Positions 33,331 through 63,801 of a stretch of DNA of 64,000 nt are shown here, one piece after another (the first letter of the stretch is position 1; each line of letters begins with the position of its first letter). Position numbers and translations under genes: made by a program. This DNA is from Camelus ferus (lineage: Eukaryota), in assembly GCF_009834535.1 (NCBI RefSeq), contig NC_045696.1, forward strand, positions 85,748,001-85,812,000. The letters run 5' to 3'. The notes below the pieces were generated by a model that worked only from the letters and a program-made list of their open reading frames with translations, was not told the DNA's origin and ran no database searches.

Positions 33331-33362
<32 letters not shown>

Positions 33363-33752: not shown

Positions 33753-33756
<4 letters not shown>

Positions 33757-33800
<44 letters not shown>
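33757..33800. repeat. (AT)22 microsatellite
   Basis: Read directly. Confidence 0.95.
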
Positions 33801-33802
<2 letters not shown>

Positions 33803-34475: not shown

Positions 34476-34631
34476 AATCTCCTAATTTATAATCTCAAGT
34501 TTAACCTTGGAAGAAACTTTACTGTTCAATGGGATCAAACTTTATTGGAAATTGAAAAATTTACTTGTTATCCAGATGCAGGAACTGCAACTAAAGAAAG
34601 CTGCGAGGATCGTGGCTGTTTATGGCAAACG
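34476..34631 (+). CDS. SI: SI exon 25 (end of isomaltase domain, start of trefoil 2)
   Basis: caaag|...|gtaata; 156 nt; NLLIYNLKFNLGRNFTVQWDQ...CYPDAGTATKESCEDRGCLWQT. Confidence 0.95.
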
Positions 34632-39148: not shown

Positions 39149-39355
39149 GCTCCTTTCGGATCCAAAGCACCTGAATGTTACTTTCCTAAAGAAGACAACT
39201 CTTATTTAGTCCATTCAACTCAGTACTCATCAGTGGGTATAACAGCTGACCTCCAGCTAAATACTGTAAATGCTCGAACAAAGCTACCTTCTGATCCCAT
39301 CCCAGCTCTTCGTGTAGAGGTGAAATATCACAAAGATGATATGCTGCAGTTTAAG
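39149..39355 (+). CDS. SI: SI exon 26 (contains the pro-SI cleavage Arg)
   Basis: tttag|...|gtatca; 207 nt; [17 protein letters not shown]...[29 protein letters not shown]. Confidence 0.95.
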
Positions 39356-39724
39356 GTATCATTTATAAACTATTACAATGGATGATTCATCTCTCAAGGC
39401 AAGAGATCTTTAAATAGGTTAGGTGCTTGGATTTTTAATGTAATATTAAGGATTATTAATTGGGTTGATGACATTTTGTTTCTATAAAAATAAAGCTTTT
39501 TTTGCTACAGAGCTTATAGCTAGATGCACGATAAATAAAACTTTTCATTTTTTGCTAACTTGAGAATAATTAGGCAGATAGTGGTGTTTTTTTAAAATTA
39601 TTTAATTCTTGATAAATCAACTAATCACTTAGAATTGGACTATATTGGTTGTCCTATTAAAATAAATGATTCAGAAAAAAAAATGCAACAGGATGCTTAC
39701 TGTTTTCCATTGTTTTTAAGTAGT

Positions 39725-41390
39725 GATATGAATTTTCTGACCAGTGCAATAAGAAATACAAGAGAGAATTTCTTTCAATAGTTACACTTAGCAATTATGT
39801 TTTACTTAAGAGCTCTGAGGAAATCCACTGAGAAAACTACTTAGAAATGGTAAGAAAGATCAGCAAAATTACTGGATATAAAATAGTTATCTGCAAAAAA
39901 TGTTTTACTGTAGACAATTACTCACCATTTAAAAGCTGAAATGTTGGCAGATCCCATTTGCAAAATCAAATGAGAAAATCAGTCCAACAAACAACAAAAA
40001 TATCAAAAATCATAGGGATAATTTGACTGTTTGTAAGAAAAAAAAACTATTAAAAAATGTTGATAGGTATTAAATAAGTACCAAAAAAATCCAAAGAAAA
40101 AAATCCAACTGAATTGCTTTAAAGTTAAGTAATTTTAGATCAATTGTTGCTTCTAAAGTATTTCCATAGACTCTTGGTAAAATATTCTTTGAGACTTAAT
40201 AGAATAACCTTTAAGTAAAATAAACATGACAATGGCAATAGTTAAAACTTAAAAACAAGTGAAGATGCTAAAATGTACAAAATTAAAACACTATGGAGCT
40301 GCAGGTAGAAATACCTGATAGTTTATTGAAAAAAGGATGTCATAGGAGATGTAATATATATTATTTTTAATAAATATATATGTTTACACATAAAATAAAT
40401 CAAACATAAGCCCAGATAAAAAAAATTAGCTGCATATTTATCTTGTATCTGCCTAGTAAAGGACTTTCAAATTACAGATACAAAGGAAAAATCCCATGGA
40501 TAAAATCTATCTTGTATTACATAAAAATTTAAAATATTTCAACATCAATAAACACCAGAGACAATTAGAAGGCAAACAAAAAATGGATAAGTATCTGACA
40601 CATATATGACAAATGGAAAACAATTTCAACTCATACAATCATGAAAAATATTAAGACCTCAAAAGCAGACATTCAACAGAAGAAGAAATAAAATTTGGAA
40701 CAAAATGTTAAAATACACTTATAAAAATGAAAAGAACAAAGCCAGATACAAAGAATAGGAAAACTAAATGTTGAATAATCATGTAGCAAAAGGTTTATCC
40801 TCATCAGCAAGAAAATAAATAACAATTTTAGAAATAAAAATGCTTTTTAATTTAACATAAAATAGTATTAAAGAATGCATTTGGGTGAGAGTATTAATTA
40901 GTACACTAATTCTGGAAAACAGTTTACCAACAGATATCATAGATCCTACAAATGTTAGTATACTCTGACCTAATACCTTCACTTCTAAGTAATGTACTGG
41001 GGAAAGACATAAATGAACATAAATTAGCATTAGCATTCATTGTAAGATCATACATAATAGCAAAAATATTGAAACAATTTTTTGTCTAATCATTAGATGG
41101 TAAATAACTTTGTATATCCAATATAAGAGAATGTTAGCTCTAAAAGTTATGTTTTTGAAAATTTCTCATTGTATGGAAAAATAAATTATAAAACATTAAA
41201 ACAGATAAAATGCAGTACATAATTTGATTCCATTACATGTCGATGTATGCATCTGGAATTCTATATAGATATATGGGCCATGGAGACTGAATTAGGAATT
41301 ATATAAATAAGAATTCTAAATATTCTTGTTTGAACCATTATTTAAATTATTTAATAATATGTACACAATATGTCAGCAATAAGAACAAAA
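39725..41390 (+). mobile_element. Old, degraded L1 (L1M-type) relic
   Basis: ccagtgcaataagaaa...aaaactacttagaaatggtaagaaagatcagcaaaattactggatataaaa ORF2-like segments. Confidence 0.6.
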
Positions 41391-41421
41391 CATATCTGTT
41401 GTCATTATTTCTCTGTGATAG

Positions 41422-41577
<156 letters not shown>

Positions 41578-42219
41578 TAAGTGACTGAATTATTTGACAT
41601 GAAGTATACTTTGATTTTAGCTTAGGAGGGAAAAAATTAGACATTATTTTCAGACTCTACAGTGCTAAAGTGTCATCAAACCAAAGGTCGTTTTAGGTGT
41701 ATTAAAGAACTTGGGTTATTTTAACATTTAAAACTGAAACATAGCAAACCTGTGAATTACCATTAAGGATTGGTCTAAAATTTCATTTACACTTTGGATA
41801 TGGTTGATTTCATTACTAAATATCAGACCCATTTTTCTAATCAAGTGGGGAACAGAAACTGAGAATCCTATTGAAAAAGCATGATAAGCGCTGGCAAAAT
41901 AGTAATGGAAATGTGTTATATAAATAATTTACTAGAACTGTTGAAATTGGAGGGATTTTTGGTCCTGGAATTTGATACAATTAAAACTATCTCTGCCAGG
42001 AATTGAGAAAAATAGATATCCAATATATTTCTTAACTTAGCCAAAAAAATGTATTGAAATAATTATCCATTTCCATTTGTATCTGGGTATGATAAGGTAT
42101 ATAGAGAAAAATACTATTGCTTTTCATATCACCTAACAAAGAAATACCATTATTATTTCTGATACTACTTGTATGTGTTTACAGAAATATAATTGTTTTT
42201 TGTTTTGTTTTGTTTTCAG

Positions 42220-42388
42220 CTGGGATTCTCGCCTACCTGGATTTGCTTTTAATAACCAATTCATTCAAATATCTACGCGCCTGCCATCAGAATATGTATA
42301 TGGTTTTGGGGAAGTGGAACACACAGCATTTAAGCGAGATCTGAACTGGCATACTTGGGGAATGTTCACAAGAGAACAACCCCCTGGT
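42220..42388 (+). CDS. SI: SI exon 28
   Basis: ttcag|...|gtaggt; 169 nt; [25 protein letters not shown]...[11 protein letters not shown]. Confidence 0.95.
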
Positions 42389-43843
42389 GTAGGTACCAAT
42401 ATTTGACTACCCCATGTGGCAACTAAGATCATGATTTGTATCCTAGCCACTTCTTCAATATTGAAGTAATGAAAGGGGCTAGAGATCTCCAGAGCAGCTA
42501 GAGTGATTTTCTGAAAAACAAAGAAGTCACCATAAATTACAAGTGAAAGTAGATGACTGGATAACATCATTGACCTCAGTGAGAAGTGAGATTGTGACCC
42601 AATTCCTTACCCTCTCAACTGCAAAGAAAGAACATTCAGATTTGGCATTCCCTGCCAAATCTATGTTTACTTCCAGTTTTTAGAAAATAGCTGGCTAGGG
42701 TTCTCCTTGGAATTTTTTTCTACTCCTTAGATAAAGATTTGATGCTAACTTTTTCCTTTGTTACCCCAAGCTGCAGCTGTGCATTTCTGTGAGGCTATAC
42801 TACTAGTTCCAGCTTTAGAAAATGATTTTATATGTTCATGACACTTTTCCCAATATTTTGCCTTATTAATGAAATATATTTCATGAATATTAATGCACTG
42901 CACATCTAATATTAACTATAATTATTCTAAACATATGAAAAATATATCTTAAATAAAAATATTAGCTCATTTCCATTTGTCACGTGTGATGTGTACTTAA
43001 AGGGTATATTCAGTATAATATTATAAATATGTATACTATCACAACACTTTAAGGTGTTCAAGCAACATTTATTTGTATCACAGTAGCTCAAACTTCGATT
43101 ATAAATGCTGTTTTTCATTTGTTCTAATTTGAAAGACTATGTTTCACCAAAATTTACTTCTTTAAAACCCTTCAATATTAGTTGGCATTATTAAGTTAAT
43201 ATAACCTTGATTCTCAATATATAAATTTTCTTTCACATGCTAACCAATTACTAGGATTCAGTGTGGGTCAAATATGTCAGTTTGAATAGGGATCATCAAC
43301 TTGTAAGTCTTGTAACCTCTGAGAAAACATTTCATGACCCTGAGTATAGGTTTTCTATTCTGAAAAAATGAAAAGATCTAGCTGAAAATGAAATTAAATG
43401 CTTTATATATAAACAATATATTATCATTTAAAATATCGTAAAATGTTACATTAACTTAAATATTATCATATTAAGTACTTAAGGGGTTTGATCATTTTAA
43501 TCATTTATAGGATATTTTATTATTGAAAAAGAAATACCAATTAATAAATTAATTAAGACACATAACCTGTGGAAAGGAACCCAATTATTCTAAAACCACT
43601 GGTTTCTTACATTAGTTATTGAGGTAGTACTTTAGAGTGTTAGACATTTGTATATTCATTTGCATGCTCTCATTGCAGTAACAGTCCAAATAATAAATTA
43701 TTTTCTAAGGGAAATGTGTTTGTGTGTGCAATAAAGGAACATTTGAATTCCTAGGCTCAGTCTTCTTGTGAACTTAAATATTACATTAACAAAATTCACA
43801 TGCTATCATTATTTAAAAATATATTATGTTTTTTAAATTTTAG

Positions 43844-43940
43844 TATAAACTTAATTCTTACGGATTTCATCCCTATCACATGTCTCTGGAAGATGAGAGC
43901 CATGCTCATGGAGTTCTCTTACTTAACAGCAATGCAATGG
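43844..43940 (+). CDS. SI: SI exon 29
   Basis: tttag|...|gtaaaa; 97 nt; [32 protein letters not shown]. Confidence 0.95.
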
Positions 43941-44019
43941 GTAAAACACTTTTTTAAAATTTCTCATATTTTATGTGACTCTTTAATGAAATTATAACTT
44001 ATACAGAGATAAAATTTAA

Positions 44020-44154
<135 letters not shown>

Positions 44155-44234
44155 TGAGTGTACTTTTTTATAAAAACATAAATTTTTTTATAATATAAAA
44201 TAATTCTCTTAACTCAGAAATAATTTTTTCAAAG

Positions 44235-44360
44235 GTAATTGGCAGACCAGTCATGCCACCTTATTGGGCTTTGGGATTCCAGTTATGTCGTTATGGGTAC
44301 AGAAATACTTCAGAAGTTCAGCAAGTATACAATGACATGGTGACTGCTCGGATCCCCTAT
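44235..44360 (+). CDS. SI: SI exon 31
   Basis: caaag|...|gtatgt; 126 nt; [42 protein letters not shown]. Confidence 0.95.
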
Positions 44361-45574
44361 GTATGTATATAAATTTTTAAGATATTATTGAACATGTCAT
44401 CTATAAAAGCAGAATGAAATAATCAAACATATGTACTTTAAAATTATTTTTAAACATTTGACAATAATCAATGCTTAGTAGCACAAAATGAATTGGGTAT
44501 GGTATTTTATTGATTGTCTTTATCAGGTGGATAAAGGAAATGGGATAATACCATTCCTTTTCATTGTTTCTCACCAGTTCAATGATTGTGAGTTGTACTA
44601 AACAAGTTATTATGCACTTGCTTTTCTTTCAGAACCTTTGGGTTTCATAAGTAGTCAAACACATTCCCCATATTCTCTTTAGATAAGAGTAAGTGTCCAT
44701 AGGAATCTCTTTCATCAACTGATGTGACAAATTACAAAAAAGGAGACAATACTCGTAATGTTAGAATACAGAATTAGAGGGCTTGCTGAGTATCATCCCT
44801 CACTGTTTGGGAAACTAAATATTCATAAGTGTCCAGAAATAATCAGTCCCTGTGGTTTTATTTTTAACAAGAATAAGGAACCCTAGCAATCCTCCTAGTA
44901 ACATTTAAACATTGAAATCTGGAATGCTTAGTATATAAGAACTCATTCTAAGAAGGATAAGAAGGACCTCATTTATAAGACATAAGTACATATAGTAGAA
45001 TCCAACATATGATTGCTGAATACTTTATTATGGGGAAATTAATTATATAGGTTGATGATGTAACAATACACAAGTGGAAATTTTATAAAGAGAGATTTTC
45101 CATTATTAGGTCTACTATGTCAGCCATATTTTTATAAAAGAAGTAATTGACCTAATATATATTAACAAAATAATTTTTAAAAAGGTTAGTAGGTCTAAGT
45201 TAAAGATTTTGTGATAAAATTAAAGCATTTATTAATTTAAACATATTTGTAAATACCTACATATGAACAATATTTTGCTTTTTTAAGCCTGGGCTATTAT
45301 TTCTCAAATGACTTTGGTGGATAATGAAAGAATAATTTTATAATAATTGGTGGATTTACTAATAATTCTTTTTTTCCTTTGGCAATGTTAGAGTTATTTG
45401 AAATTATTCCATATTTGCTACAATTGTGTTTCCAAAAATGGAGAAATACCTATTTCTGTATACTATATAAAATTCCAAACTGCCATTTAACATAATTTTA
45501 TAGCCTCATAAATTCTTTACTCCTGTGTCTTCCTATTTCCTTTGGTAATTATGTAACAAAAGATACTGATTTGA

Positions 45575-46262
45575 GTATAGAGATTCCTCAAAAGACTAAA
45601 AATAGTATTACCATATGATCCAGAAATCCCACTCTTGGGCATATATCCAGAGGGAACCTTAATTCAAAAAGATGAATGCACCTCAATGTTCATAGCAGCA
45701 CTATTTACAATAGCCAAGACATGGAAACAACCTAAATGTCCATTGACAGATGACTGGTTAAAGAAGTTGTGGTATATTTATACAATAGGATATTATTTAA
45801 CTATAAAAATTAATAAAATAATGCCATTTGCAGCAACATGGATGGACCTGGAGATTGTCATTCTAAGTGAAGTAAAAGCCAGAAAGACAAAGAAAAATAC
45901 CATATGATATCACTTACACGTGAAATCTAAAATGAAAGATGAACTTACTTACAAAACATAAACATATTCACAGACATAGAAAACAAACTTATAGTTACCA
46001 GGGGGAAAGAGGGTGGGAAGGGATAAATTGAGAGTTTCAGATTTGTAGATAACTAAATAATATATATATAAAATAGATAAACAACAAATTCATACTATAT
46101 AGCACAGGGAACAATATTCAGTATCTTGTAATAACCTTTAATGAAAAAGAATATGAAAACAAATACATGTATGTTCGTGTATGACTGAAGCATTATGCTC
46201 TATACCAGAAAATGACACAAGACTGTAAACTGACTATGCTTCAGTAAATATATATATTTAAG
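45575..46262 (+). mobile_element. 5'-truncated L1 (ORF2 C-terminus plus 3' UTR) with target-site duplication
   Basis: ORF 45635-45907 gives GIYP...MFIAALFTIAKTWKQPKCP...MPFAATWMDLE (L1 ORF2 C-terminus); flanked by aagatactgatttga and aagataactgatttga. Confidence 0.92.
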
Positions 46263-46527
46263 AAGATAACTGATTTGAAAGGATTTTTACTTCTATACCA
46301 ACATTTTACTTCTGTATCAACTTAACAAAACAAAACATTTATATGAACTTGCTCTTAGAATACTTTGTCTTTACATGCTACTTTTATTTCTTGCACATAA
46401 TACTACTTGACCAATTCTCTTAAGCATTGAAACTTTCATATTGCTATTACTTTCATAAGTCTAATAGAATATAATAAACTCACTCTTTTGATTCTTATCC
46501 CACTACCACAATTCTCATATCTTTCAG

Positions 46528-46656
46528 GATGTTCAATACACAGACATTGATTACATGGAAAGGCAACTAGACTTTACAATTGATGACGAATTCTGGGACC
46601 TTCCTCAGTTTGTTGACAAAATAAGAAATGAAGGAATGAGATACATCATTATCCTG
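46528..46656 (+). CDS. SI: SI exon 32
   Basis: ttcag|...|gtcagt; 129 nt; [43 protein letters not shown]. Confidence 0.95.
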
Positions 46657-47375
46657 GTCAGTATTTACATTTTATATTTTATCTGAGTGTTACTATCTTG
46701 ATTTTGTTAATATTTCTCTCCTGAATGATGGACGGAAAGGTGTTTCAGAATATGAAGTATGTAACTTTGGATTCTCCTCCCAAATCTAAAACCTTTTCCT
46801 TTAACACATTTTATTTATATGGTCTGCCACAAGGCTACCTCAGTCTTAGGTATAACCTTAGAGACCGAAGACTAAACAAAGCTAGGAGTCAAAGGCAGGC
46901 TGTTTTCTAGTTATTAGCCAAGTTACAAACTAGCCTCAATTTATGGAAGCTGTCACAAAGTGGTGATGGATTTTCTATTCCTATACAATTCTCAAATCAT
47001 TCTATGGGACTGCTTCTTATGCTTGTCACATTTAAAAATTCGCCTTCAAGTTACTGATTTTGTAGGGAGACTGTTTCATCAATATCTTACAGAAAGAAAG
47101 CTAGGCAGTCAGAAATCCCACTGGAGAAATAAAAACAAAACAAAAACACTAGTAATCTTGCTTGAAATCATAGCTAATACATTTTCAAAAGTTCTTAAAA
47201 TTTTCTTCTAGGGAATTCACAAGGCTATCTAGCTAGAACTCAGAAGTTTATACCATCAGTCCACTTGTCAGTCCACATGAGAATACAATGGAAAATTGTA
47301 ATGTTTCTTAACAGCTACCCAACTGGCTATACTTTTATACCATAGTTATCTGGCTTGTATTTTTTTTAATTTTAG

Positions 47376-47486
47376 GATCCAGCAATTTCAGGAAATGAAA
47401 CAAAGCCTTACCCTGCATTTGAAAGAGGACAGGAAAAAGATGTCTTTGTCAAATGGCCTAACACCAATGATGTTTGTTGGGGAAAG
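47376..47486 (+). CDS. SI: SI exon 33
   Basis: tttag|...|gtattg; 111 nt; [37 protein letters not shown]. Confidence 0.95.
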
Positions 47487-47701
47487 GTATTGAATTGATA
47501 TTTTGAAATAAAATAAGTATAACAATGCCATTTCATTGAAAGTTTCTATTTAACGAAGCAACTGTTAAAGACATATTCAGAGTAAGAGATGTAATGATTT
47601 AATAGCTAATAAATAAAAGAACAGGTACTCTGAGTTCAATCTCAATTACTAGAAACAGAGAAAGAATTCATATGCTATATGTTTAAATACTATTCGTTTC
47701 A

Positions 47702-47779
47702 TCTTTAAATTGCTATTTATTGTATTTCTTGGTACCTTTTTCTTTAAATTGCTATTTATTGTATTTCTTGGTACCTTTT
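47702..47779. repeat. Perfect 39-bp tandem duplication
   Basis: tctttaaattgctatttattgtatttcttggtacctttt occurs twice head to tail. Confidence 0.97.
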
Positions 47780-48069
47780 GTGTTTTATTATAAAACTACC
47801 ATTAATAAGATGGCTACTCATCATTCTATACTACAGGGGTCATTTAAATGTTTGTAACTTCTCTTAAAAGCATCTTATTAATAAAATAAAGAATGTTGTT
47901 AAAAGCTATACTTACATCCCTGTCCTGAACAAGGAATGTAATGCATTATATTTCATTTAAACAATAATATTCAGACCTGGATATATTAATATATAAAACA
48001 TCTTGAGTTGGCTTATATATAAAAGAGTAAAGAAAAAAATATCCACTAGTCATAACTAGAATGAAAAAG

Positions 48070-48345
48070 AATCCCGTAATGGGAGATGTAATTAAATGTG
48101 ATGTGGGATTCTTTTTGGAACTTGTACCAAAAATAGAATGTTAGTGATAAAAGTGGTGAAATTCGAACATGGCCTGTAGATTAGTTAATAGTGTGTTAAT
48201 ATTAATGTATTGGTTTTAATCATTGTTGTATGGTTATGAATATATTAATATTAGGGAAAGCACAATGATGGGTATAGGAGAACACTAGGTATAATGTGTG
48301 TGATTTTTCTATACATCTGAAAATATTTCAAAATTAAAGTATAAG
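48070..48345 (+). mobile_element. L1MC-like 3' UTR fragment
   Basis: aaatgtgatgtgggattc...gtggtgaaattcgaac...gattagttaatagt...tctgaaaatatttcaaaattaaagt. Confidence 0.6.
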
Positions 48346-49177
48346 AAAACAAAGTCTGTGATAAACTCAGTAAAAAAATCATAATATTTTAAGAAACATG
48401 CAAGTAGAGATTACGTGACTATAGAAAGAGATTTTTTTTCTTTCCTGCCTTCCTCTCCTCATTCTGTACTTCTATACAATTTCTCAGATTTCTACCTTTA
48501 CAGCACTATTCTCTGTCAGCAACTAGTCCCTTGTATGTAATTACTCCTTTGAGGATTATCTACATTTTTATGTGGAACTTTCTAGTTTCTACAACATAGA
48601 TTCAAATCCCAGAGCTTTTGGCATGCTTGAATTTGGGCTCTGTTTTGTGTTTGTGGCTGGCGTGGAAGAAAACATTGGTAGGCAGGGAGGCAAGAAAGGA
48701 GGATTTAGTAATAACTGTGAAAACCAAGAAAATATTTGCCTCAGCATTGCATCATCCAACTCATATGTTCAGTTCTTTTCATACAAAATTTTTTTATCTT
48801 TTTAGATTTTAATCCTGAGTGATTGTAGAAACTATTTTAATATACCACATTAAGTTAAATATAGTATATATTTTTCATATTTATTTTTGACCAGAGCTTT
48901 TGGTTATATGCATTGCTTTTAAATCATTACCTGCCACAAAGGTTGGTATTCTTTTCTTATTTGCCATATTAAAGAGGAGATTAATATGGAAAATGGGGCT
49001 AGTTTGCAAATGATACATATACCAAAACACAAACTAATAAAAATAATTGAAGGAATTATTGATCTGGAGCTCTTGAGTCTATAATACATTTCTAAAATTC
49101 TATTATACTTCATTTACAACAGTCATATCACACTGAATTTATATGAATTGGTTTCCCATTTTTTTCTCTCTTTGTAG

Positions 49178-49240
49178 GTTTGGCCAGATTTGCCTAATGT
49201 GACAATAGATGAAAGTCTAACTGAAGATGAAGCTGTTAAT
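49178..49240 (+). CDS. SI: SI exon 34 (insertion loop specific to the C-terminal subunit)
   Basis: tgtag|...|gtaagt; 63 nt; [21 protein letters not shown]. Confidence 0.94.
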
Positions 49241-49477
49241 GTAAGTTTTATACTGATTAACTATATAACTAAAAGAAATTCGGCACTCTGATTTAATGAC
49301 CACTTTGACCAATAATTCATTTTGAATGCTTTCCTTAAAAAAGTGATGGCTTATATTCTAATTCTCTATATCAAACCATATTAAATCAAATTTATTTACT
49401 TCTAAATACCAACCTGTTTCAGTTACTCTGTTAAGCAATTTACATTTTATTTTATTTAATCCAAGCAATAATTATTT

Positions 49478-51351
49478 TTTAAAATTTTTATTTTATTGAA
49501 TATTTAACATGACATTTACTCTCAACATTTTAAGTTTACAGTACAGCATTCTTCACCCTAGGGACAATGTTGTAGAGCAGATCACTAAAACTTATTCATC
49601 TTACATAATCAACACTTTATGCCTATTGAATAGCAACTCCCAATTACCCTTGGAACTCCAGTCCCTGGCAACTACCACTCAACTCTCACATTCTATGAGT
49701 TTGACTGTTTTAAATACCTCACATAAGTGGAATCATGCAGTATTTGTCCTTCTATGACTGGCTGATTTCACCCAGCATAATGTCCTTTAAGTATATTCAT
49801 GTTGCCCCAGTGTTTCAGGATTTCCTTCTTTTTAGAGACTGAATAGAATTCCTTTGTTTGTATATACCACATTTTCTATATCAATTCATCCATCAATGGT
49901 CATTTAGGTTATTTTGACATCTTTACTCTTGTGAATAGTGCAGCAACAAATGTGGGAGTTCAAATAGCTCTTCAAGATCCTGATTTCAGGTGTTTTGGGA
50001 TAAATGCCTGAAAATTGGATTTCTGGATCGTATGGTAGATCTATTTTTAATTTTTTGTAGACTCTTAATATTGTTTTTCTTAGTGGCTGCACCATTTGCA
50101 TTGATATCAACAGTGTACAGGGATTCCAATTTCTCTACATCTTTACCAACACTTGTTATTCTTTGGGGTTTTTTTTTTGGATAGTATCCATACTAACATA
50201 TGTGAGATGATACAACATTATGGTTTTTACTTGTGTGCCCCTAATGATAAGTGATATTGGGCATCATTTCATCTACCTGTTGGTCATATGTCTGTGCTCT
50301 TTAGAGAAATGTCTCTTCAAGTCCTTGCCCATTTTCTGTGTTATTAGTGTTTATTGAGTTGTAGGACTTCCTTACATACTTTCAAAATTCAGCTTTTATC
50401 AATACATGGTGTGCAAATATTTTGTCCCATTCTCTAGGTTGCCCTTTCACTTTGTTGATTGTTTCCTTTTCTGTGCAAAATCTTTTTAGTCTGATGTAGT
50501 CTCACTGGTGTATTCTGGGGTTTTTTTTACCTATGTTTTGGTGTCACAGCCATAAAATCTTTGCCAAGACCCATGTCATGAAGATTTTTCCTTATATTTT
50601 TTTCCTCTGAATACCTCTGCAGTTTTGGGTGTTACATTTAAGTCTTTAGTCAGTTTTGAGTTGAGTTTTGTCTATAGTATAAGACTCTAATTTAATTCTT
50701 CTGCATGTGAATATCCAGTTTGTTAAAGAGACTATACTTTCTCCATTGTGTATTCTTGGCACCCTTGTCAAAGGTCAACTGACTATATATGTGTGGATTG
50801 ATTTCTGAGCCATTGGCCTGTGTGTCTGTTTTTATGGAAAGATCATGCTGTTTTAATTGTTGTAGCTTTGTAATAAATTTTTGAAATCAGGAAATGTGAT
50901 GCCTTCAGCTTTGTTCTACTTTCTCAAGATGATTTTGGCTATTCAGGGACGTCTACATTTCCAAATGAACTCTGAAATGTTTTTTTCTATTTCTGTAATA
51001 GATGCTATTAGGATTTTGATAGGGGTTTCACTGACTCTGTAGATTCCTTTGGTACTATGGACATTTTAACAGTATTAATTCTTTCAGTCCATGAACATGG
51101 TTTATCTTCCTATTTGTTTCTTCAATATCTTTCATTAATGCTTTATAGTTTTCAATGTACAGATCTTTCACCTCATTAATCAGGTTTATTCCTAAGTATT
51201 TTATTATTTTTGTTGCTGTTGTAAATGGGACTATTTTCCTAATTTTCCTTTCAGATAGTTTATTGTTGGTGTATAGAGATGTAACTGATTTTTGCATGTT
51301 GATTTTGTATCTTACAACTTTGCTGAATTCATTTATTAGTTCTAATGTTTA

Positions 51352-51385
<34 letters not shown>

Positions 51386-53357
51386 CTTTGGTGTTTTCTA
51401 CATATAAGATCACATCATCTATAAACAGGGACACTTTTACTTCTTCCTTTCTGATTTGGATGCTTTTTTTCCTATTCATGCCTAGTTATTCTGGCTAAGA
51501 CTGCCAGTACTGTGTTAAATAGAAGTGACAAGAGTGAGCATCCTTGCCTTCTTCCTGATCTGAACTAAAAAGCTGAAAATTTTTCCTGAATGAACATGAT
51601 ATTAGCTTTGGGAATTTAATGTATGTCCTTTATTATGTTGAGGTAATTTCCTTCTCTTAGTTTATCAAGAGTTTTTATCATGAAAGAGAGTTGAATTTTG
51701 TCAAATATTTTTTCTGCATTTTTGTTGAGATGATCATGTGATTTTTATCACTTATTCTGTTAATGTGCTATATCACAGTCTATGACTTTTGTATGTTGAA
51801 TAATCCTTTCCTCACAGGGAAATCCCATTTGCTCATGGTGTGTGATCCCTTTAATGTGCTGTTAAATGTGGTTTGCTAGTATTTTATTGAGCATGTTTGC
51901 ATCTATATTTGTCAGATATTGTTCTGTAGGTTTTTTTTAGGGGGAGGGGGGTTTGTGGGGTCTTTGACTTTGGCAGCAGGGTGATATTCACCTCTTAAAA
52001 TGAATTTGGAAGTATTCTCTCCACTTCAGTTTTTTTCAGATGAATTTGAGAAGGATGAGCATTAATTCTTTCTTAAATGTTTGGTAGAATTCACCAGTGA
52101 AGCCATCTGGCCCTAGACTTTTCTTTGCTGGGAAAACTTTGATTACTGATTCAATCTCCTTATAAGTAATTTCTCAGATTTTGTTTCTTCATGTTTCAGT
52201 CTTGTTAGGTTGTATGAAACCAGGAATTTGTCCATTTCTTCTAGGTTATCCAGTATGTTGTATAATTGCTTATCATGGTCTTTTATGATCCTTTTTATTT
52301 CGGTGGCATCAGTTTAATGTCTCATCTTCTGTATCTGACTTTATTTAACTTTATATTTTTTTCTTAGTCTAGCTAACAGTTTGTAAATTTTGTATATGCT
52401 GTCTACAAGAAACTCAGTTTAGATTTGAGGACACACATAGACTGATAGTGAATGTATGAAAAAACATATTCCATAGAAACAGCAACCAAAAGAGAGCAGG
52501 GGAAGCTGTACTTATATCAGACAAAATAGACTTAAGTAAGAAACTGTCACAGGAGACAAATAAAGGCATTATACAATGATAAAAGAATCATTCTTCAGGA
52601 GGATATAATGATTATAAATATATGTACACCCAGCATCAGAGCAACTAAATGTATAAAGCAAACATCAACAGAACTGAAGGGAGAAATACATAGTAATACA
52701 AAAATAGTTGGAGACCTCAATATTTCACTTTCAATAATGGATAAAGCAACCAGACAGAAAATCAACAAAGAAACAGTGGACTTGAACAACACTATAGACC
52801 ATATGAATATGACAGACATATACAGAGCATTCTACCCAACTGGCAGAATATACGTTCTTCTCAAAAGCATATGGAACATTCTTTGGATATATTACATTGG
52901 GTCATAAAACAAGTATTAATAAATTTAAGAAAGTTGAAACCATACCAAATATGTTTAGTGACCATAGCAGAATGAAACTAGAATCAATGTCAGAAAGAAA
53001 ACTGGAAAATTCGCAAATATATGGATAATTTCCACAGCACACTTGCAATAGCAAGTGGATCAAAAAAGCAATCAAAAGGGGAGTTAGAAAATATCTTGAG
53101 ACAATGAAAAATGAAAATACAACATACCGTCTCTTACAGAATGCAGCAAAACCAGTACTGAGAGGGAAGTTTACAATGATATGCATTCATTAAAAAAAAG
53201 ACCTCAAATAAGCAACCTAAGATACACCTTCAGGAACTAGGAAAAGGACAAACTAGGTTCAAAGCCAGCAGAAGGAAGTTATAAAGATTAGACCAGAGAT
53301 AAATGAACTAAAAAATATCAAAGCAATAGGGAAAAAATCAATGAAACTAAGAGTTTG
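49478..53357 (-). mobile_element. L1 of about 3.9 kb with a 5' inversion (- strand 49478-52396; inverted + strand segment 52394-53357)
   Basis: T-rich tail at left; ORF2 peptides on - ([19 protein letters not shown]...KYLGINL) and endonuclease peptides on + (IVGDLNISLSIMD); diverged TSD gcaataattatttt / gcaatcaatctttt. Confidence 0.9.
51355..51384. repeat. (GT)15 microsatellite inside the L1
   Basis: Read directly. Confidence 0.95.
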
Positions 53358-54767
53358 GCAATCAATCTTTTAGGTAAATTGAGTTATCATAATTAAATCG
53401 CACACGTTCCTGTAAGTGTGAAAAATTAGAGGAGTATTCTTACTGAAAATTTACCGAATTATTTCTAAAGTAGAGTTCAAAGAATTATTGAATCATATTG
53501 TTGAGGGAAAAAGTCAGAGTTTTATTTCAGTTGGAGTTCTACTCATTAGTGTTGGGTAGTATTAGCAATACTGTAGAGGAAGGCATGGTTCTTTGTATAG
53601 ATTTTGGAGGATAGCTTCAATTTACAATGGCTTATGTAGAATTGCTTTGGATTCTCTTCCATAAAATTATAAAAGAATGTTGAATCACAGGTACCTGATG
53701 AAATTTATGGATATAAGCAATGATTTATATTAAAGGAATAAAAGCAGCCATGTGATAATAAAATACACAGAAAAATGAATAAATTGTGAAAACAGCAGAA
53801 CAATGAAAGTTAAGAAACAAAATATAGTGTTATCGTTCTTACTATTTCTTATTGTGATCTAGGAGAGATTCCATAGAAAATGCTTATTGAATATAACCTA
53901 TCTAAACCTTCTTTCTTTATGAGTAAAATGCATTTATTGGGCAAAGTGATGAAGTCCCTTTTAACTCTAAAAATATTCATGATACATGTTTTGTAAACCC
54001 CTATATTGTCTACTATGCATTTTTCTCTATGCACAATGCCCTCACATATTCTTGTTCATAGAGAAGACTGTTCTGGCAGTTACTGTGCAGTCAAAGTATG
54101 ACAGGAAAGCATGCAGGTGATGCTGTTTTTCAGGCAATTGATTAACCTGCAGAAAGTCCAACCTCTGCTAACACACAAACCTTGGAGTTTATACGGGTAG
54201 GTCAGCAAGTAGAGAATTTTCTTGGTAGGGAATGGAGTATATCACTTCCTCTCCACTGGGGAGGAGGGGGAAAGGGTTAGATGTGAGAGAGAAAGAGAAA
54301 GAAAGTTGGTTGAGTTGATGGAAAAATATGTTGGTTTCAGAAGGGCAGAAAGCTGAATAAACAAAGTTTTATCAGAAAAATAGGCTAAACCAAGGTCCTT
54401 TCCTCTCCCACATGCTCCATAAAGGTAAACCTGCAATGTAGGACTCTAAAAATATGGAGAAAAAAGTTCCCTATCACTCTAAGAAGCACTGGAAATATAT
54501 TTCTGTGTGTTCTGAACTGGTTCTTTGCAATCCATATAGAACCCCAAGGCTGCTCTCTTCTCTCTCCGTGTATACCTTTCTCCCTCTGCTCCCTGTTGCT
54601 GCTGGGGTGGTTGGGGGAAAATCATACACAATCATTCATTCAAGTTGCGATCAGGTTACTTTCACTTTCACTTATGCACAACTTGTGAGTCTGACAGATA
54701 AATGTCTAGTTAGTCACACATGATCTCTCTTATGACTTTCTCCATGTGGGTCTGAATTTTTTTACAG

Positions 54768-54884
54768 GCTTTCAGAGCTCATGTAGCTTTCCCAGATTTC
54801 TTCAGGAATTCCACAGCAGAGTGGTGGGCCAGGGAAATTATAGATTTCTACAATAATCAGATGAAGTTTGATGGCTTGTGGATT
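54768..54884 (+). CDS. SI: SI exon 35
   Basis: tacag|...|gtaagt; 117 nt; [39 protein letters not shown]. Confidence 0.95.
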
Positions 54885-56197
54885 GTAAGTAGCCTTTGAG
54901 CATTTTACATTTTAAGTGTAGTGATTATGCAAAATTCTTACTAGATTCTAATAATATTAAAGTATTCTTTGTGAAAATTAGCTCACTCGTTTTTTTTTCT
55001 GTAGAACTTTCTTATGCAAAGGTGTGCGATAAATACAGTTTTAACAATTTAATTTGTGTATACGGATGCTATTTCCTGAATATTAAAGTTGAGTATTTCC
55101 AATTTGACCAGGAAACCAAAATAGCCTCTTTTTCTAATGATTCATAAATGCTTATAAACATATGTTATTTTATTTTCATTCAATGTAAGAATAAATGTCA
55201 CACTCAACTGTCAGTCTTTGATGTAAGAAATCATAATCTCTTACAAATGTAGCAAAATCATTTGTTAAACAATCTCCTAATTTGAGGTTTAACTTTAAAA
55301 TGTTATTAATAAGATTTTTGATAAGATAATTTTGAGATAGCATAAAAAGAATTTACGATATCACAAGTAAATGTTTAACACAGGAGGTTTTACACAATAC
55401 TTCTCTAGATTTTTGAACATGACATTTCTACTCTTGATTTTTCAACACGTATGCATTAAATTACTTACCTTTTTAATTAAATAAACTTTATAGAGGCACT
55501 GTCATTTGCAAGCCTTGAGGATGTGAAAATGGATAAAGATTTTTTTAATTAATGAGAAATACAGGCTTATTTTATGTATAAAGTTATGTACTATAAAGGA
55601 TTCTATTAAGTATATCCCCAAGAATTATATCTGGATCCCCAAAAGATAACCTTCTTTATGATGAAAGAATCTCCTTTAAGTGGTAACTAATTTATATATT
55701 TACATGATAGTCCCTTTATATGTGGCTACTAAGATTCTGAAATGTATACTCAGTTAGAGATACTCTTTGAAGTTTTCTGTATTTGTAAACTGTATCTTGT
55801 GGTTTTAAAAAACACAAATTATTGTTTTAAAAAAATTGACACAAGGCTCCAGGGCAGAAGTGGAGGGAAGGACATTGGGAAACATACACTATTATAACTT
55901 AATTTTATGTCTAGAAACATAGAAAATAATTCACTTTCATACGTAGATTTTATCTACAAAGAAAAACAGGACATTTTGTTTTCTCAAAAGAAGATGTGAA
56001 TTGTATACAAGCTGAGAAACACCGAGCCTAAACTAAATTCTTTAGTATTGTTGAGATACCTTATATTTCTGTTCTTTAGAATAGTAAATGAGCTATTATT
56101 CAAATATGCTACGTTAATTTACTGGTTTCTAAATTAGTTCTTTTTAGAAGATACGCCCTAAATTTGTTTTTTGTTAACTTTTCTTTCTCTTTTTAAG

Positions 56198-56285
56198 GAT
56201 ATGAATGAACCATCAAGTTTTGTAAATGGAACAACTACTAATCAATGCAGAAATGAAGCGCTAAATTACCCACCTTATTTCCCAG
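56198..56285 (+). CDS. SI: SI exon 36 (first codon is the sucrase nucleophile Asp, human D1394)
   Basis: ttaag|...|gtataa; 88 nt; [29 protein letters not shown]. Confidence 0.95.
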
Positions 56286-56789
56286 GTATAATATTGCTGT
56301 TATACCGTTGAAGTTATCTTGTTATTATTATTTATTAATCAGCTTTGTATCCCTGAAAAACTGCATCTGGAACTTAGAAAATATGGATCAAAAGATAGTA
56401 TTGTTATAGCATTTGCCTGGCTGTTTACTCCAGGGCTTTATGTTACCAAATGGATTTTTTAAAAAATCTATTTAATCAATATTTCTCACTTAAATGCAAA
56501 AAATGTAGTAGACTTTTAGGAGTACACTAATTTTTCAGGTTTTTATAAATTCATATTAGTTAGTAACATTTTGGGTAATATAGTAAAGTTTTGTACATAT
56601 TTTTCAGTCACAGTTACAACTGCAATCATTTTTTTCATATATAATCAGCATAGACAAAGTGCACAAATGGTTAAAAAAATCAATATTTTCAAACAATGAT
56701 TGTTTTGCCAAAATATCTTATAGTTACAATTTACACATTCCAATATAGATAAAGTTTTATAATATTTTTTTTAAATTAATTTTTCCCAG

Positions 56790-56929
56790 AACTTACGAAA
56801 AGAACTGATGGATTACAATTTCAGAACCATGTGTATGGAAACCGAGCATATTCTTAGTGACGGATCATCCGTTTTGCATTATGATGTTCACAATCTATAT
56901 GGATGGTCACAAGTGAAACCTACTTATGA
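56790..56929 (+). CDS. SI: SI exon 37 with a +1 frameshift (premature TAG at 56855-56857)
   Basis: cccag|...|gtaagc; 140 nt. ELTKRTDGL reads in one frame and [36 protein letters not shown] in the next frame. Confidence 0.92.
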
Positions 56930-56999
56930 GTAAGCAGTCTTCACGATTATTCTTTCTATTACCTTTTAGATGTTAGATATAATGTTACCTACTTTAAGA

Positions 57000-57195
57000 C
57001 ACCTTCCTGCTGACCTTATCTTGCTTGGTCCCTTATGGCACTGAGAATAATTGTGCTTTTCTCTCTCTCTCTATCATTGTTTTATATTTTCATCCCAACT
57101 CAACAGAATACTGAGCCATTTAACTTTGTTCCCCAACATGTACTTAGCTCATAGCAGGTGCTCAGTGAATAATTTTGAATGAATAATTGAGTGAA
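57000..57195 (+). mobile_element. L2 3' end
   Basis: cttagctcatagcaggtgctcagtgaataattttgaatgaat. Confidence 0.55.
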
Positions 57196-57384
57196 TACTA
57201 TATAATTTGATGTCATTAATTAAAACATGAAAGCTTAGCTAAGCCTGTTATTTCAATCCATTATGAACGAATTAGAATGTGTCCATGACCTTGATCTCAA
57301 ACTTTAATATCCATGTTAAACAAGCTCTTATATGAGGCTGATGATGGAACACAAGCCATTCTTTGCGAATCAAGTCTGTATTAA

Positions 57385-57586
57385 CACTGTACAATAAAAT
57401 TTTCTGCAGTGATAGAAATGTTCTGTAATTCTGGATTGTCCAGTATGGTAGCCACTAGCCATATATGGCTGTTGGGTAATATGGCTAGTGCGACTCAGGA
57501 ATGGAATTTTTAAATTTTATTTAGTTTTCATAAATTTTAGATAAATAACCCCACATTGCTAGTGGCCACCGTATTACACAGTACAG
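57385..57586. mobile_element. MER3-like hAT-Charlie MITE
   Basis: ctgtacaata...ttctgcagtgatagaaatgttctgta...tggtagccactagcca...gctagtggccaccgtattacacagtacag, with internal inverted symmetry. Confidence 0.75.
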
Positions 57587-57594
57587 CTCTAGAT

Positions 57595-57736
57595 CACTGA
57601 TTCTTAACTCCACATTGCAACCAATTGGAGATTTTTTTGATAAATGCTAATTTAATTGGTCTATATTATAGCCTAAGCATCTGAAGTTTCAAAAATTCTC
57701 CAGGTGGTTCTAATGAGTATCCAGGATTGAAAACTG
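57595..57736. mobile_element. MER5-like hAT-Charlie MITE
   Basis: cactgattcttaac...tttaattggtct...ctccaggtggttctaatgagtatccaggattgaaaactg. Confidence 0.6.
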
Positions 57737-60700
57737 AAGTTGGGGAAAGAATGTAATGCCTTTTTGAGTAAAGAGTATGGGTAATATTTTCTCATTTAGT
57801 GAAACATGCTTATCTTATTTTAAGCATCAAACTCTTTTCAACCTACAATGAATAAATTATTTAAGATATTATTACATAAATTAATGAGTACAGATTTGTT
57901 TACTGGTTCACAATGTAAGGGCACCAAGATCATGCAGAAAGACTAGGAAATGTCATTTTTAAGAGTAAACAAACTGGTCTTCAACAGTGCCATTTTACTA
58001 GGGCAGATGTTTCTTAAATGGGACAATTAACCCTACTGGAACCTATTATTGGAGCACAATTATCATCAGCTGACCTCACTTTACGATAAAACTATAGATA
58101 TTAAAAGTAACAAAAATACTGAGAAATGACTGATGACCCCATTGGCAAAACTAATGTATTTAGAAAGGAAAGTATGTAGTTTAAGGGAAAATTGAAAGAA
58201 CATATTTTCTTCACAGAGGGCGGTAAATTGAATGTCTGGAGCACACTACGAAATCTAGCATGGGTCCTGAGACATTGTGGGATGCTTAGCAAATTTAAGT
58301 GAATCAATTATTATCCTACAACAACTATCAAAATTGTATAAATAAATTCAAGGAAAGAATAACAAAATTCTAAGGAGTTGAATTTAGTGATGTTTAAGAT
58401 CCATTTTTAACTCTTAAATAACATTATAAGGAAGATATCAGTACAATCCTCCAAAGAACATCCCTTTAATAGTGTTAATTTTTCTCCTGTCTGTAAAATT
58501 TTCCAGTAAAAGTTTAACCTTATTTGTTGTTTAGATTGAACAGATTAATGAATTTTAAATGTTGAGCTTAATTGCCCACTTTATGCATAGCCATAGACTT
58601 TTCATAAGTTTTAGAGATTAAATATAGTCATTATATGTTTAAGAACCTTGAAAAACATAAAGGGGTGCTATAAATAAATTAAATTCACATTTAGGCAAAT
58701 TATGGAGAGTAAAGACTTTTTATCATTGGAAAAAACTGAAAGGATTTTAAAATATATTTTTCCTTAAAGTTATTCAGACTAATATTTTATTGTTCTTTTT
58801 TGTGACTCATTTTTTGTTTCTCAAAACTGGAACAAATTTGACATTCAGCTAGTTCTTGTTATTGTGCTCTTTATTTAACATGAAACAAACAAGCAAACCA
58901 AGGAAAGAACAGTAGATAAATAATCAGCCTAAAAGATTCAAACAGTTTTATAGAAAGAACCTTGGATATCAGTGGCAAATGGAAAAGTTTCATATATAAA
59001 TCCCATATAAAGTTTTCAGTCTTCAGTTGGTCTCTTTTTTTAATTTAAAATTTAGTGTTGTACTGAAGTCTATGCTTCAAATGTAGGGAGAAATAAATTT
59101 TTAAAATTTCAAGTTGTGTGTTCAAATTTGAGATAATATTCAGGGATTATTTAGCTATGTAATCTGTATTTTCATCTTCAACAGTACCTTGAATGACTCT
59201 AGAAAATTCTACATATTTTTCATTAGAGATGACATAGAAAAATCAAAATCATTGACCCTTTTGGAAGTTCTGGTGGGGTTAAATATATAATTTTTAAGTA
59301 AATGCCTAAAATTTTTGTCATTGCAATCTAGAGTTAAATTTAAAAGTTAATAGATACAAACTCTTTTCTCACATATTCCTATAGACTGGCTTATTTAGTA
59401 TCTTGGAAAGTTATATTGCTTTTCTATGTTTAGTACATCTATCTACCTGGAAAAATGAGGTGCTTTTGCAATTTTTTTTAACAAAAAATAGGACTAGTGT
59501 AGATAAAAACAAACATGATGCAGCTCACTGTCCCACTTATTTGAAAGTTACAGCTGCAACTTTCTCTTACTTAGCTCTTAGTAAACTGAAAAAATACTGA
59601 ACATGCCTCTTAAATAATACTTCCTGATTAATATGGCTGAGTGGAACACTGATATAGCTGGTAACAGTGTTTTTAAAAAATGAGATCTGAACCCTTAAAA
59701 CTATTTCTGTGGTTTAGCCTTTCACATTCTTCTCACTAAAGGACATTTCAAATTTAAATTTTACATATACACTCAAAAACAATGGAAATATTTCAACATA
59801 CAAAAAGCTTGCTATCCAACTCTAACACTAAAACTAAAATTACATTTTCTGATCTAATAGTGAGTCTCTTTGAGATGAGAAATTGGCAAATTACTATTTC
59901 TAATGGATAATAAATATATAGTACTAATTTTTTGCTAAGAATGATTTTTAAAGTCTTTGATTTTCAAAGAGATATTTGAAATAAATATTGAGAAAAACCT
60001 TCTTGTAATAACTCTCTTTTCTTTGAACAATACTGGTCAATATTCTAAAATAATTTAGTATCACTCAATGAGAAGTATCTCAGGTGTATTTACCAGTTGA
60101 TTTCATCAATAATTAAAAGCAAGAATCAATTAAATTATTTTGAAATTATTATCTTTAGTAACCATGACAAAAGTAAAGGTATTTATTTACTGTAAGAAGC
60201 TTTAAAGTATGTTTTCAAATTTTCAATTTCATATTCACCTTTCACATCATCCACTTTTGTAATATGCGTGTATAGTTTTCTAAAAATCACTTTTTCCTTT
60301 TTGAAGGACTTTTTCCAGTAATTTGAGATACTTTTATAATTTTTATAATACTTTTCAAAAAATGCTCATGTAGACAGTTATAAACATGCAATAAAAATGC
60401 TTCTGTAAACAACATTAAAATTCTTTCTGTAAGGTAAATTTTCCAAAGTCAGCTGTTAACAGAGAGCAAACTTTCTTATGGTTTCTTAAAATTAAATTAA
60501 GTTCATTGTGACTAAACCATTTGTACAGGTGGAACATATCGGAAATATTAACAAAATATTTATAGTGACAAAATTTTAAATTACAGTTTTAGTGATAGCA
60601 AGTGATTTCTCAAATAAGAAATACTCTGTGATGGGTTACAAAGATTTTTCTAATACTAGAGGTGAGATTCCTCCTACAGGAAAATTATTGTGGAAATATT

Positions 60701-62360
60701 TTATGCAGAATTCTTCTTAATCAGAAATCTAAGAAGGCATAGTTTAGTTATTAATTTAAAGCCTTAGTGAAGATTTTTTTTGCAAAAGTAAGACATACAG
60801 CAGAAGAAAAATCCTTCAAGAGTATTTATTTCTTGCATGTGGACATTAAGAATTTGAGATAACTCTACTCTTGTAAACAAGTTTTAGTATTAGTTAAATA
60901 AAATGAATTTTTTTGCAAATTAACTTAACTTAGAATATATGATTCCATGCACATTTTAGATTGATCATCAATTTTTTATTACCTATATAAATATACATTC
61001 ATTCTTGTTAAATGTCTGCAAATATATGTGATTTATATTAAATACATTATTGTTCCTAAATTAACTAGATCTTTTATATTTGCTATAAAATTGAAGCAGT
61101 GAAGATGGTTTTCTTGTATGATCTTTTTAAAGAAACACATATATGCAAGTAGGAAATTTTAAGTTAACAAATGCAGTTTTGTCTCATTATCAACAAACGG
61201 TTCAATATATCAAATATGTGTGTTTAAAATATTTGCAGTTTCCTGTAGTTTTGAGATATTCATTAATTAAAAAATTTCTTACGCTGCTGTTATATGCCAA
61301 GCACTGTATTAAGTGTAAGGGATACAAAGAAGATTAAAGCAGCCCTTAACCTCATGAATCTCAAGGTCTCATTGAAGAAGCTTTATATATAAACAAATCG
61401 GTATAAACACTGTGATCTGTCTTTAACAAGGAAATGATTAGATATAGTTGATAACATGTTACTGGGTTACAAATCAGCCTAGTTAGGTATTTGAAGTATT
61501 TTCTCCTGATAAGTTCTGTAGTCCTTATTGATATACAATTTTTTTTAGTAATATAAAAATAAACATTTTATTTCTGATTAATATAATAGTGAAAAAATTT
61601 TATTTTGGATACTTTTATAATTGTAATATCAGAAACATAATTACAGCTAATACAGATAATATAAAATAATGCATTATTGCCTCATTCTCAGCACTAGAAT
61701 ATATTTTAAAATAAATAATGAATTAATAAAGTAGCTCTCCAAAGACTGAGGAGGGGAGAACAGAAAAATACATGATCTACTTTTAAACCCATTCTCTTGA
61801 GATCTGGCTTTGGACAAATTTTATGCTTGAAATAGAACAATTGCTTTTATTTTTAAGACCCAGGAAACCCTTGCTCTCTCTAAAGTACCCTCTAAAACAG
61901 AGAGTATTATAGCAAAGATTTTCTGCAGGGTAATACGGAGAATAAGTGTTAATAAGTTATAGTTGAGAAGCACTGCAACAATTAATAGAGCCTAAATCTT
62001 TATTCGAGAGAACATTTTTAAGTAGAATAAACTGAGTTCATTAAAAAAAACTCACATTATAATTAGTTGATTTGAAAATATCAGTAGTTGACTTAATTTG
62101 TATTCACTGAGCAAATAAATAAAGGCCACTTAGGCATGTCACTCTGGTAAATGTTGGAAGGGAAGAAAGATGTCCTTCATGCCTGTGAGGATTTTTTAGT
62201 GTAATGAGAGAAAACTCAATTATAAAGAGCTAGTTGTAATAAGAGACAGCATAGACAGCAAAAATCAAATCCTTTTTTCTTTAATGAAATGGTCCTAAGT
62301 AGAAATATCTGAAGAAAATACCTCATGTAAAAACTTACAGATCCTCTCCATCTATATTAG

Positions 62361-62494
62361 TGCACTGCAGAAGGCAACTGGCAAAAGAGGAATTGTTATT
62401 TCTCGTTCCACTTATCCTACTGCTGGACAATGGGCGGGACACTGGCTGGGAGACAACTATGCAAAATGGGACAGTTTGGACAAATCTATCATTG
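62361..62494 (+). CDS. SI: SI exon 38 (sucrase acid/base HWLGDN; Asp codon 62452-62454, human D1500)
   Basis: attag|...|gtatgt; 134 nt; [44 protein letters not shown]. Confidence 0.95.
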
Positions 62495-63481
62495 GTATGT
62501 GAGAGCCACCATCTTTATCATTCTTCTTTTAAATTTAAATTTAAATTCTTTTAAATTTTCTATTAGGTACTCACTTTTGCTAGTTCATATACTTTGTAAG
62601 TCCTTCTCTGAGATATGCTTTTGGCATCATATTTTATGACAAATAGCATTATGAAAAGGCAGTGGGCCAGAAAGCAGGACCTGGGGTGCTGTGTAGAAGT
62701 TAATGATATCCAGCTAGTTTATGTTGAGAAAATAATTTCATCCCTTTTGGTCTCAATTTCCCTGTTGGAAAGAGTAGAAACTGGAAAATATATAGAGGTA
62801 AGAAGAAATTCTAGATTCTAGGGAATAAGAATCACTCATAGATGCTAAAGTATGAAACATTTCATACCAAATTTTGAAAGTTTTCTGAAAGTGGTCGATT
62901 AAAGAGTAAAGAAAATAAAGTATCAAAGGAGAAATGGATTCTTTTCTGTTTCAGATCTAGACTTAAAAATACTTTACTATTTATATTAGAGTTCAAGGAA
63001 AACAATGTTTAGAAATATTCCTTTAAAATAAGAGCTGTGAAATCACATGCATTCTATTTTATTAAAGTAATCATTCCTTATAGGAGTTCGTCTAACAAGG
63101 ATAATTCAGTGATGAGACCTATGGTTAAATGATAATAGAGACAGCCTAAATTTATTTTAAAAACAGAACCAAGGAAACCACTAAGACTTTCTTCTCATAC
63201 TGTAATGTGTCCATAACAGTTTTGTGGTCTAAATGTGACATCTTGAAAATGTCAAGGAAGCGATATCGTGTCTTATTTTTATAAATGCCATTAACACTAT
63301 AAAAAATATATATATAAATTTCATTAGAAGAAATATTAGAAAAGTATATTAATAATCTGAAAAATGTTTCATTGAATTAGTGGTCAGTATTAGAAATAGA
63401 ATATACCAAAATCAGGAAAAAGCAAATGTTAAAATATATGAAGTAGTGGCTTTCTACAAGTTTATTCCTCTTTTTTTTAAG

Positions 63482-63516
63482 GTATGATGGAATTTAGTCT
63501 TTTTGGAATGTCATAT
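63482..63516 (+). CDS. SI: SI exon 39
   Basis: ttaag|...|gtaagt; 35 nt; GMMEFSLFGMSY. Confidence 0.93.
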
Positions 63517-63603
63517 GTAAGTATCTCTATTCCTTTTATGTTTATCACTTGTTAATATTAGGGAACAAACTGTACAAATTAATTAAATGTAACTATATTT
63601 TAG

Positions 63604-63801
<198 letters not shown>

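Follow-up and report, generated by a model that had tools for sequence, protein, structure and literature searches.

Does the stop codon that interrupts the sucrase-isomaltase (SI) gene in the present Camelus ferus assembly reflect the loss of a digestive enzyme, or was a single base inserted into the assembly consensus? The question is raised by the window, the whole stretch of 64,000 nucleotides that was analysed (G000:C1:85748001-85812000, in a genome of 2.09 Gb), which is AT-rich with a GC content of 0.27-0.33. A preliminary description of this window had reported a frameshift in exon 37 of SI and had proposed that it may remove sucrase in a camelid that ferments its food in the foregut, with an assembly indel as the alternative. 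Were the extra base real, sucrase-isomaltase deficiency would have a natural model in camels, and SI would exemplify a digestive gene in decay after a shift to foregut fermentation. An Old World camel would then also carry a natural null for all of pro-SI, caught before a second lesion had accrued.

Structure of the SI locus

The right-whale SI protein (P0003, 1825 aa) was aligned to the window by tblastn, and the search was extended into flanks of 20 kb upstream and 40 kb downstream. Together with a search for splice junctions, this alignment places exons 4-40 of the Camelus SI gene, or 37 of its 47 coding exons, at 300..63720 on the plus strand. Coding exons 2-3 precede the window by ~3.5-5 kb, exons 41-48 follow it at a distance of 2.2-13.2 kb, and the 47 coding exons span window positions -5031 to 77155. 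The first exon is presumably non-coding, as in the human gene, which brings this numbering into agreement with that of the preliminary description (15, 37). The coding exons are collinear with right-whale SI and share 91.2% identity with it over 1824 aligned residues. In the whale-guided search, every neighbouring exon pair is joined in frame by GT-AG junctions, and the sole failure is found within exon 37. The 10 coding exons that lie beyond the window (2 upstream, 8 downstream) are likewise open, in frame and bordered by GT-AG.

The translation of one 69-aa exon is 100% identical to a public fragment from Camelus dromedarius that is named sucrase-isomaltase (P0002). Identity to this fragment, which matches the Pfam families PF01055 and PF21365, is 100% on several shared exons and 95-98% in HSPs that run into introns. 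The translation of exon 38 (62361..62494, plus strand; begins in phase 2) matches the GH31 TIM barrel (PF01055, E 1.1e-10) as well as solved MGAM and SI chains. In GH31 enzymes, the Asp of the W-I-D-M-N-E motif acts as the nucleophile and the Asp of the H-W-L-G-D-N motif acts as the acid/base. In the isomaltase half of the camel gene, GLWI/DMNEV is divided between exons 13 and 14, and HWLGDN is found in exon 16. In the sucrase half, GLWI/DMNEP is divided between exons 35 and 36, and HWLGDN, with its acid/base Asp, is found in exon 38. The W-I of this motif is encoded at the very end of exon 35 (last base 54884, plus strand), and the 88-nt exon 36 (56198..56285, plus strand) begins with DMNEPSSF, which includes the nucleophile Asp, and ends in phase 1. 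Judged by these sequence features, the locus is the orthologue of SI and is predicted to encode a GH31 enzyme with two tandem catalytic halves.

P0002 itself is a fragmented model of 671 aa from another camel assembly. It begins at exon 22 and omits exons 23, 25, 29, 31 and 36-40, all of which, exon 37 excepted, are intact in the present assembly. The jump of this model from exon 35 to exon 41 was considered as evidence on exon 37 and was rejected, because the model is poor and also omits several intact exons. Open frames are also present in two introns. In intron 34 (window 50700-53200), either strand has reverse-transcriptase-like open frames, such as 51055-51348 (minus) and 52536-52907 (plus), which are LINE fragments that occupy much of this 5.5-kb intron. 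In intron 13 (window 12670-12870), low-complexity polypurine/polypyrimidine DNA leads to long spurious open frames on both strands.

The frameshift in exon 37

As assembled, exon 37 occupies 56790..56929 on the plus strand, with an acceptor (...cccag/aac) at 56789/56790 and a donor (ga/gtaag) at 56929/56930. These borders give the exon a length of 140 nt, compared to the 139 nt expected. In the frame that comes in from exon 36, the exon encodes 21 residues that are followed by a TAG codon at 56855..56857 (plus strand), which lies in the shifted frame and precedes the exon 37 donor by 72 nt. The frame one base on is open up to the end of the exon and encodes the conserved continuation of the protein. 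When deer SI was used as the tblastn query, two abutting pieces were obtained, one in frame 2 that extends to 56824 and another in frame 3 that starts from 56820, which places a +1 shift at the sequence caat (56816..56819, plus strand). At this position, an invariant His is expected. In an alignment with 27 other mammals, His is present in 11 of the 11 mammalian SI sequences listed for that stretch, and the lesion is therefore one extra A in the His codon, namely one of the two A at 56817/56818. The break is flanked by DMNEP at the start of exon 36 and by HWLGDN in exon 38. With an X at the break, the SI translation has 1827 aa, and a second stop or shift is absent across the 47 coding exons.

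The structural claims of the preliminary description agree with these results. The acceptor and donor positions confirm that exon 37 has 140 rather than 139 nt, and the junction search returns the same phases for the end of exon 36 (phase 1) and the start of exon 38 (phase 2), as well as the same length of 118 nt for exon 15, the intact isomaltase-half paralogue of exon 37 (17080..17197, plus strand). The extra A at 56817/56818 is recovered in the caat sequence and in the frame switch of the deer alignment, and the TAG at 56855-56857 is recovered by translation in the incoming frame. In the assembly, the frameshift does fall between the exon with the DMNE nucleophile and the exon with the HWLGDN acid/base, the other 36 exons in the window are open and in frame with GT-AG borders throughout, and skipping of exon 37 alone leaves the frame broken (140 = 2 mod 3).

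A single mRNA gives rise to SI as a single precursor. The premature stop falls in exon 37 of 48, with 72 nt between it and the exon 37/38 junction and with 11 junctions behind it. Based on the biosynthesis of SI, a real stop in exon 37 would be expected to remove isomaltase along with sucrase, because the single pro-SI mRNA carries both. The loss of sucrase alone would thus not be the expected outcome.

Constraint in the remainder of the gene

Invariant sites were defined as alignment columns that are unchanged in 27 other full-length mammalian SI proteins. The camel alone differs at 0 of 388 such sites in the isomaltase half, whereas the sucrase half has 4 camel-only changes among 368 sites (D1137E, I1329V, S1356F and N1507S). 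The same count in other species ranges from 0 to 8, except in two poor models with 20 and 22. In LG+gamma trees built for each half, the camel terminal branches (0.0495 and 0.0485) are among the shorter ones, and the root-to-tip distance of the camel is ordinary and also among the shorter ones. Neither the further lesions nor the relaxed constraint of a pseudogene were found elsewhere in SI. By these measures, the gene is not decaying, and both halves evolve at an ordinary rate. The flawless remainder of the gene, together with this rate, leaves no room for a long period of relaxed constraint. Since there is no second lesion, no excess of change and no unusual branch, any real lesion would have to be very young. 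Of the individual substitutions, S1356F (window 54768-54776, at the start of exon 35) loses the Ser of an N-A-S glycosylation sequon, and N1507S (window 62440-62470, exon 38) is found a few residues past HWLGDN.

Sequence reads, protein records and literature

Sequencing runs were compared with the assembly by means of 69 sampled words from window:56500-57200 (701 bases). All 14 DNA runs, which carry two organism labels, contain 0.91 of these words. This uniform share is what a few differences private to the assembly would produce, and it is a weak hint of a consensus error. The RNA runs contain 0.12-0.29 of the sampled words, a share that is not evidence of expression. From four of the 24 runs listed, which were placed on the window, came four short pieces that together cover 373 bases with 0 differences and all fall outside the exon 37 interval (56788-57050). 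The placement of reads drops contigs that resemble human DNA, and the empty exon 37 interval is therefore no evidence either way.

Among 146 and 35 candidates from protein searches, there was no camelid SI protein that covers exon 37. This absence is uninformative, because an identity of 91.2% to the whale representative would hide camelid records within its cluster of 90 members (40 members examined, 15 among the matches listed). No short ORF-sized proteins that distinguish the two alleles were found. In metagenome contigs, pattern matching for both alleles returned 0 stretches, and the 52-aa frame, used as a query, retrieved no relative. In the main text of Hecker et al. 2019 (PMC6386725), the words sucrase, camel and alpaca do not occur. 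A review places SI and MGAM activity in the small-intestinal mucosa of the dromedary and lists sucrase among the camel carbohydrases (PMC9315206), which lends weak support to a working camel SI gene. The primary studies on camel intestinal disaccharidases are Sir Elkhatim and Osman 1982 and Mohamed et al. 2007.

Frameshifts elsewhere in the assembly

Since the site itself lacks read cover, the frameshift rate of the assembly was measured instead. This rate was gauged from the lengths of open frames at Pfam matches in long exons that are expected to be open. In exon 11 of BRCA2 (G000:C14:17331500-17338500, minus strand; L016), seven BRC repeats were found, and these lie in three different open frames. 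The exon is composed of four abutting frames (2, 3, 2, 3) and thus contains three frameshifts of the single-base type in 5.06 kb. The pieces lack internal stops and are collinear with residues 657-1030, 1032-1657, 1647-1845 and 1846-2313 of a 3387-aa representative. By reading of the sequence, one break consists of an A added to a run of A and another of a doubled T. Loss of BRCA2 is lethal. Its three frameshifts must therefore be errors, almost certainly of the assembly, and they provide a useful quality marker for this genome.

A similar break is seen in desmoplakin, for which plakin-repeat domains A and B, the linker and domain C are all encoded by one exon. In the assembly, the reading frame of this C-terminal exon (G000:C20:5041500-5048000; L017) is broken after the linker, ahead of plakin-repeat domain C. 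The resulting frames of 794 aa (plakin-repeat domains A and B and the linker) and 308 aa (domain C) overlap by 71 nt, and the break is probably a frameshift error. Frameshifts in genes that cannot be null are thus found in the same assembly as the SI lesion, in BRCA2 and, probably, in desmoplakin.

The variable exons of the clustered protocadherins (C3: 98.32-98.86 Mb) were also inspected, and 46 of the 50 are open over 788-996 aa, whereas the remaining four are open over only 320-693 aa. Each of these four exons (G000:C3:98332100-98335800, 98369419-98373100, 98563285-98567000 and 98717884-98721600; L010, L011, L008 and L009) shows one switch from frame 1 to frame 2 relative to an intact neighbour. 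In three of the four, alignment of the DNA reveals a clean one-base insertion relative to the neighbouring paralogue, and one break reads as an extra A. The four breaks are either assembly errors or very young pseudogenes. Intact long exons include plectin-repeat exons of 2073, 1807, 1819, 638 and 860 aa, an exon of 1828 aa with Ki-67 repeats, exons with Xin repeats of 3128 and 1856 aa, RAG1 with 1056 aa, and eight non-clustered protocadherin-like frames of 829-1099 aa.

In total, ~8 events were counted in ~202 kb of long open exons, and 4 events were counted in the 76.7 kb of single-copy exons alone. The frameshift rate is thus 4-5 per 100 kb, or roughly one in every 25 kb of long coding exons. 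In the coding sequence of SI (5484 nt), 0.22-0.29 errors are expected, which corresponds to about a one-in-five chance of at least one. The count excludes weak Cadherin_2 matches that have short frames and an unknown exon structure (C37:59675491, C3:99192131 and C3:98812462), as well as a plectin-repeat locus at C25:859-874 kb, which is a tandem repeat and too repetitive. At this latter locus (G000:C25:859423-874179), near-identical tandem units contain frames of 2065, 648, 881, 1079 and 1221 aa. The locus is probably epiplakin, a name that we infer, and its breaks could be collapsed or mis-polished repeats.

Explanations for the extra base

The extra A in exon 37 is most probably a single-base insertion error in the consensus of the assembly, a conclusion that for this particular base is drawn from the assembly at large. 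Camel SI would then be an ordinary, intact gene that is maintained by selection and encodes a brush-border enzyme with two GH31 domains. The assembly indel, previously offered as the alternative, has become the best explanation because the same type of lesion is present in BRCA2 and in other long exons. The lesion in SI is single and is not accompanied by relaxed constraint, the assembly contains frameshifts in genes that cannot be null, and the extra A resembles the breaks in BRCA2 and the protocadherins, which include an extra A and a doubled T. The prior probability that one haplotype carries a real loss-of-function allele in a given gene is ~1%, and up to 5% under weak selection. When the expected error rate is compared with this prior, the odds for an error are about 5 to 20 to 1. 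Against an error, consensus errors are commonest in long homopolymers, and the insertion is not in one. A further six sets of long single-copy exons are intact, which implies that errors are sparse and uneven, and the 46 other coding exons of SI are free of any frameshift. In addition, genuine young pseudogenes could account for the protocadherin cases, and their paralogue-rich cluster may inflate the rate there. Finally, a real loss has an ecological rationale in that ruminants are reported to lack sucrase activity (PMC7828265).

This rationale also applies to the possibility that the extra A is real and very young, and is either found in this animal only, still segregating, or fixed of late in a single Camelus species. 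In that case, which we regard as unlikely, the pro-SI mRNA should undergo nonsense-mediated decay or yield a truncated precursor that misfolds, and both isomaltase and sucrase would be lost. As assembled, the lesion is unambiguous; it is not set in a long homopolymer and is uncontradicted at the site, the reads placed from four runs all being outside 56788-57050. Like the ruminants, which are reported to lack sucrase activity (PMC7828265), the camel is a foregut fermenter, and little sucrose should reach its small intestine. Such a young allele is, however, disfavored by the low prior probability that any one gene carries a real loss-of-function allele and by an assembly frameshift rate that predicts ~0.2 events per SI-sized coding sequence. 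Both a second lesion and an acceleration in rate are absent, and the review cited above puts SI and MGAM activity in the dromedary mucosa and counts sucrase among camel carbohydrases (PMC9315206). The original proposal of an old, adaptive loss of sucrase that is common to camelids as foregut fermenters has very little probability. It can draw on the ecological argument and on a stop that falls between the two catalytic aspartates, and on nothing more. A 5.5-kb coding sequence that had spent millions of years as a pseudogene should contain more stops and indels and should show a faster protein rate, as by now should even a pseudogene common to the Old World camels alone, but the 46 other exons are without a lesion, the changes at invariant sites number 0/388 and 4/368, and the branches are ordinary. 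Moreover, the RefSeq SI models of ruminants are full length, and a literature search found no report of SI loss in camelids. The suggested tie between sucrase loss and foregut fermentation is not supported for a gene of which the rest is flawless and both halves evolve at an ordinary rate.

It is also highly improbable that the base is real and yet harmless, through splicing at a downstream AG (56801..56802, plus strand) that would produce a 127-nt exon, restore the frame and shorten a loop by four residues. The arithmetic of this rescue is sound, as 127 = 1 mod 3 and no stop interrupts the frame that runs from 56803 to the end of the exon, and the loop does vary in length between the two SI halves (118 nt in exon 15 versus the 139 nt expected for exon 37). 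In a position-weight matrix derived from the 45 other acceptors of the SI gene, however, this AG scores -2.45 versus 11.53 for the canonical acceptor, and 49% of the 4893 AG dinucleotides in the gene region score equally well or better. It also sits 13 nt behind a strong first AG, and the residues that would be replaced are nearly invariant in mammals; it was therefore rejected as a rescue. With a consensus error as the preferred explanation, the locus has a cautionary value: a single-base 'gene loss' in this assembly needs confirmation at the level of reads before it is interpreted.

Comparison with known systems

Ruminants, like the camel, are foregut fermenters in which sucrase is not needed, and they are reported to lack intestinal sucrase activity (PMC7828265). 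Their SI genes are nevertheless not truncated, since the RefSeq models of buffalo, red deer and serow, among the matches listed, are full length at 1813 aa. Ruminant SI (P0132, P0134, P0137 and P0129) has a 14-residue deletion in the stalk, at camel positions 46-59. Ruminant-specific changes affect just 7 sites that are invariant otherwise, and those in the sucrase half include T1180M, V1481I and Y1789H. The lack of activity in ruminants is thus not due to truncation, and foregut fermentation does not predict a truncated SI. Exon 11 of BRCA2 in the same assembly is similar to SI exon 37 in that a conserved open exon is broken by single-base shifts without a second lesion. In contrast to BRCA2, SI could be lost without killing the animal. 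In human congenital sucrase-isomaltase deficiency, truncating SI alleles are documented in patients with enzyme assays. In these alleles, as in the assembled camel exon 37, the single pro-SI frame ends prematurely within its sucrase half; unlike them, the camel lesion is read from an assembly rather than established with patients and assays. A natural truncation of mammalian SI is provided by the vampire bat Desmodus rotundus, which has a sucrose-poor diet and a 1475-aa SI (P0089) that is cut short in the sucrase half, although this case belongs to another lineage and is known here by its record name ('truncated su...').
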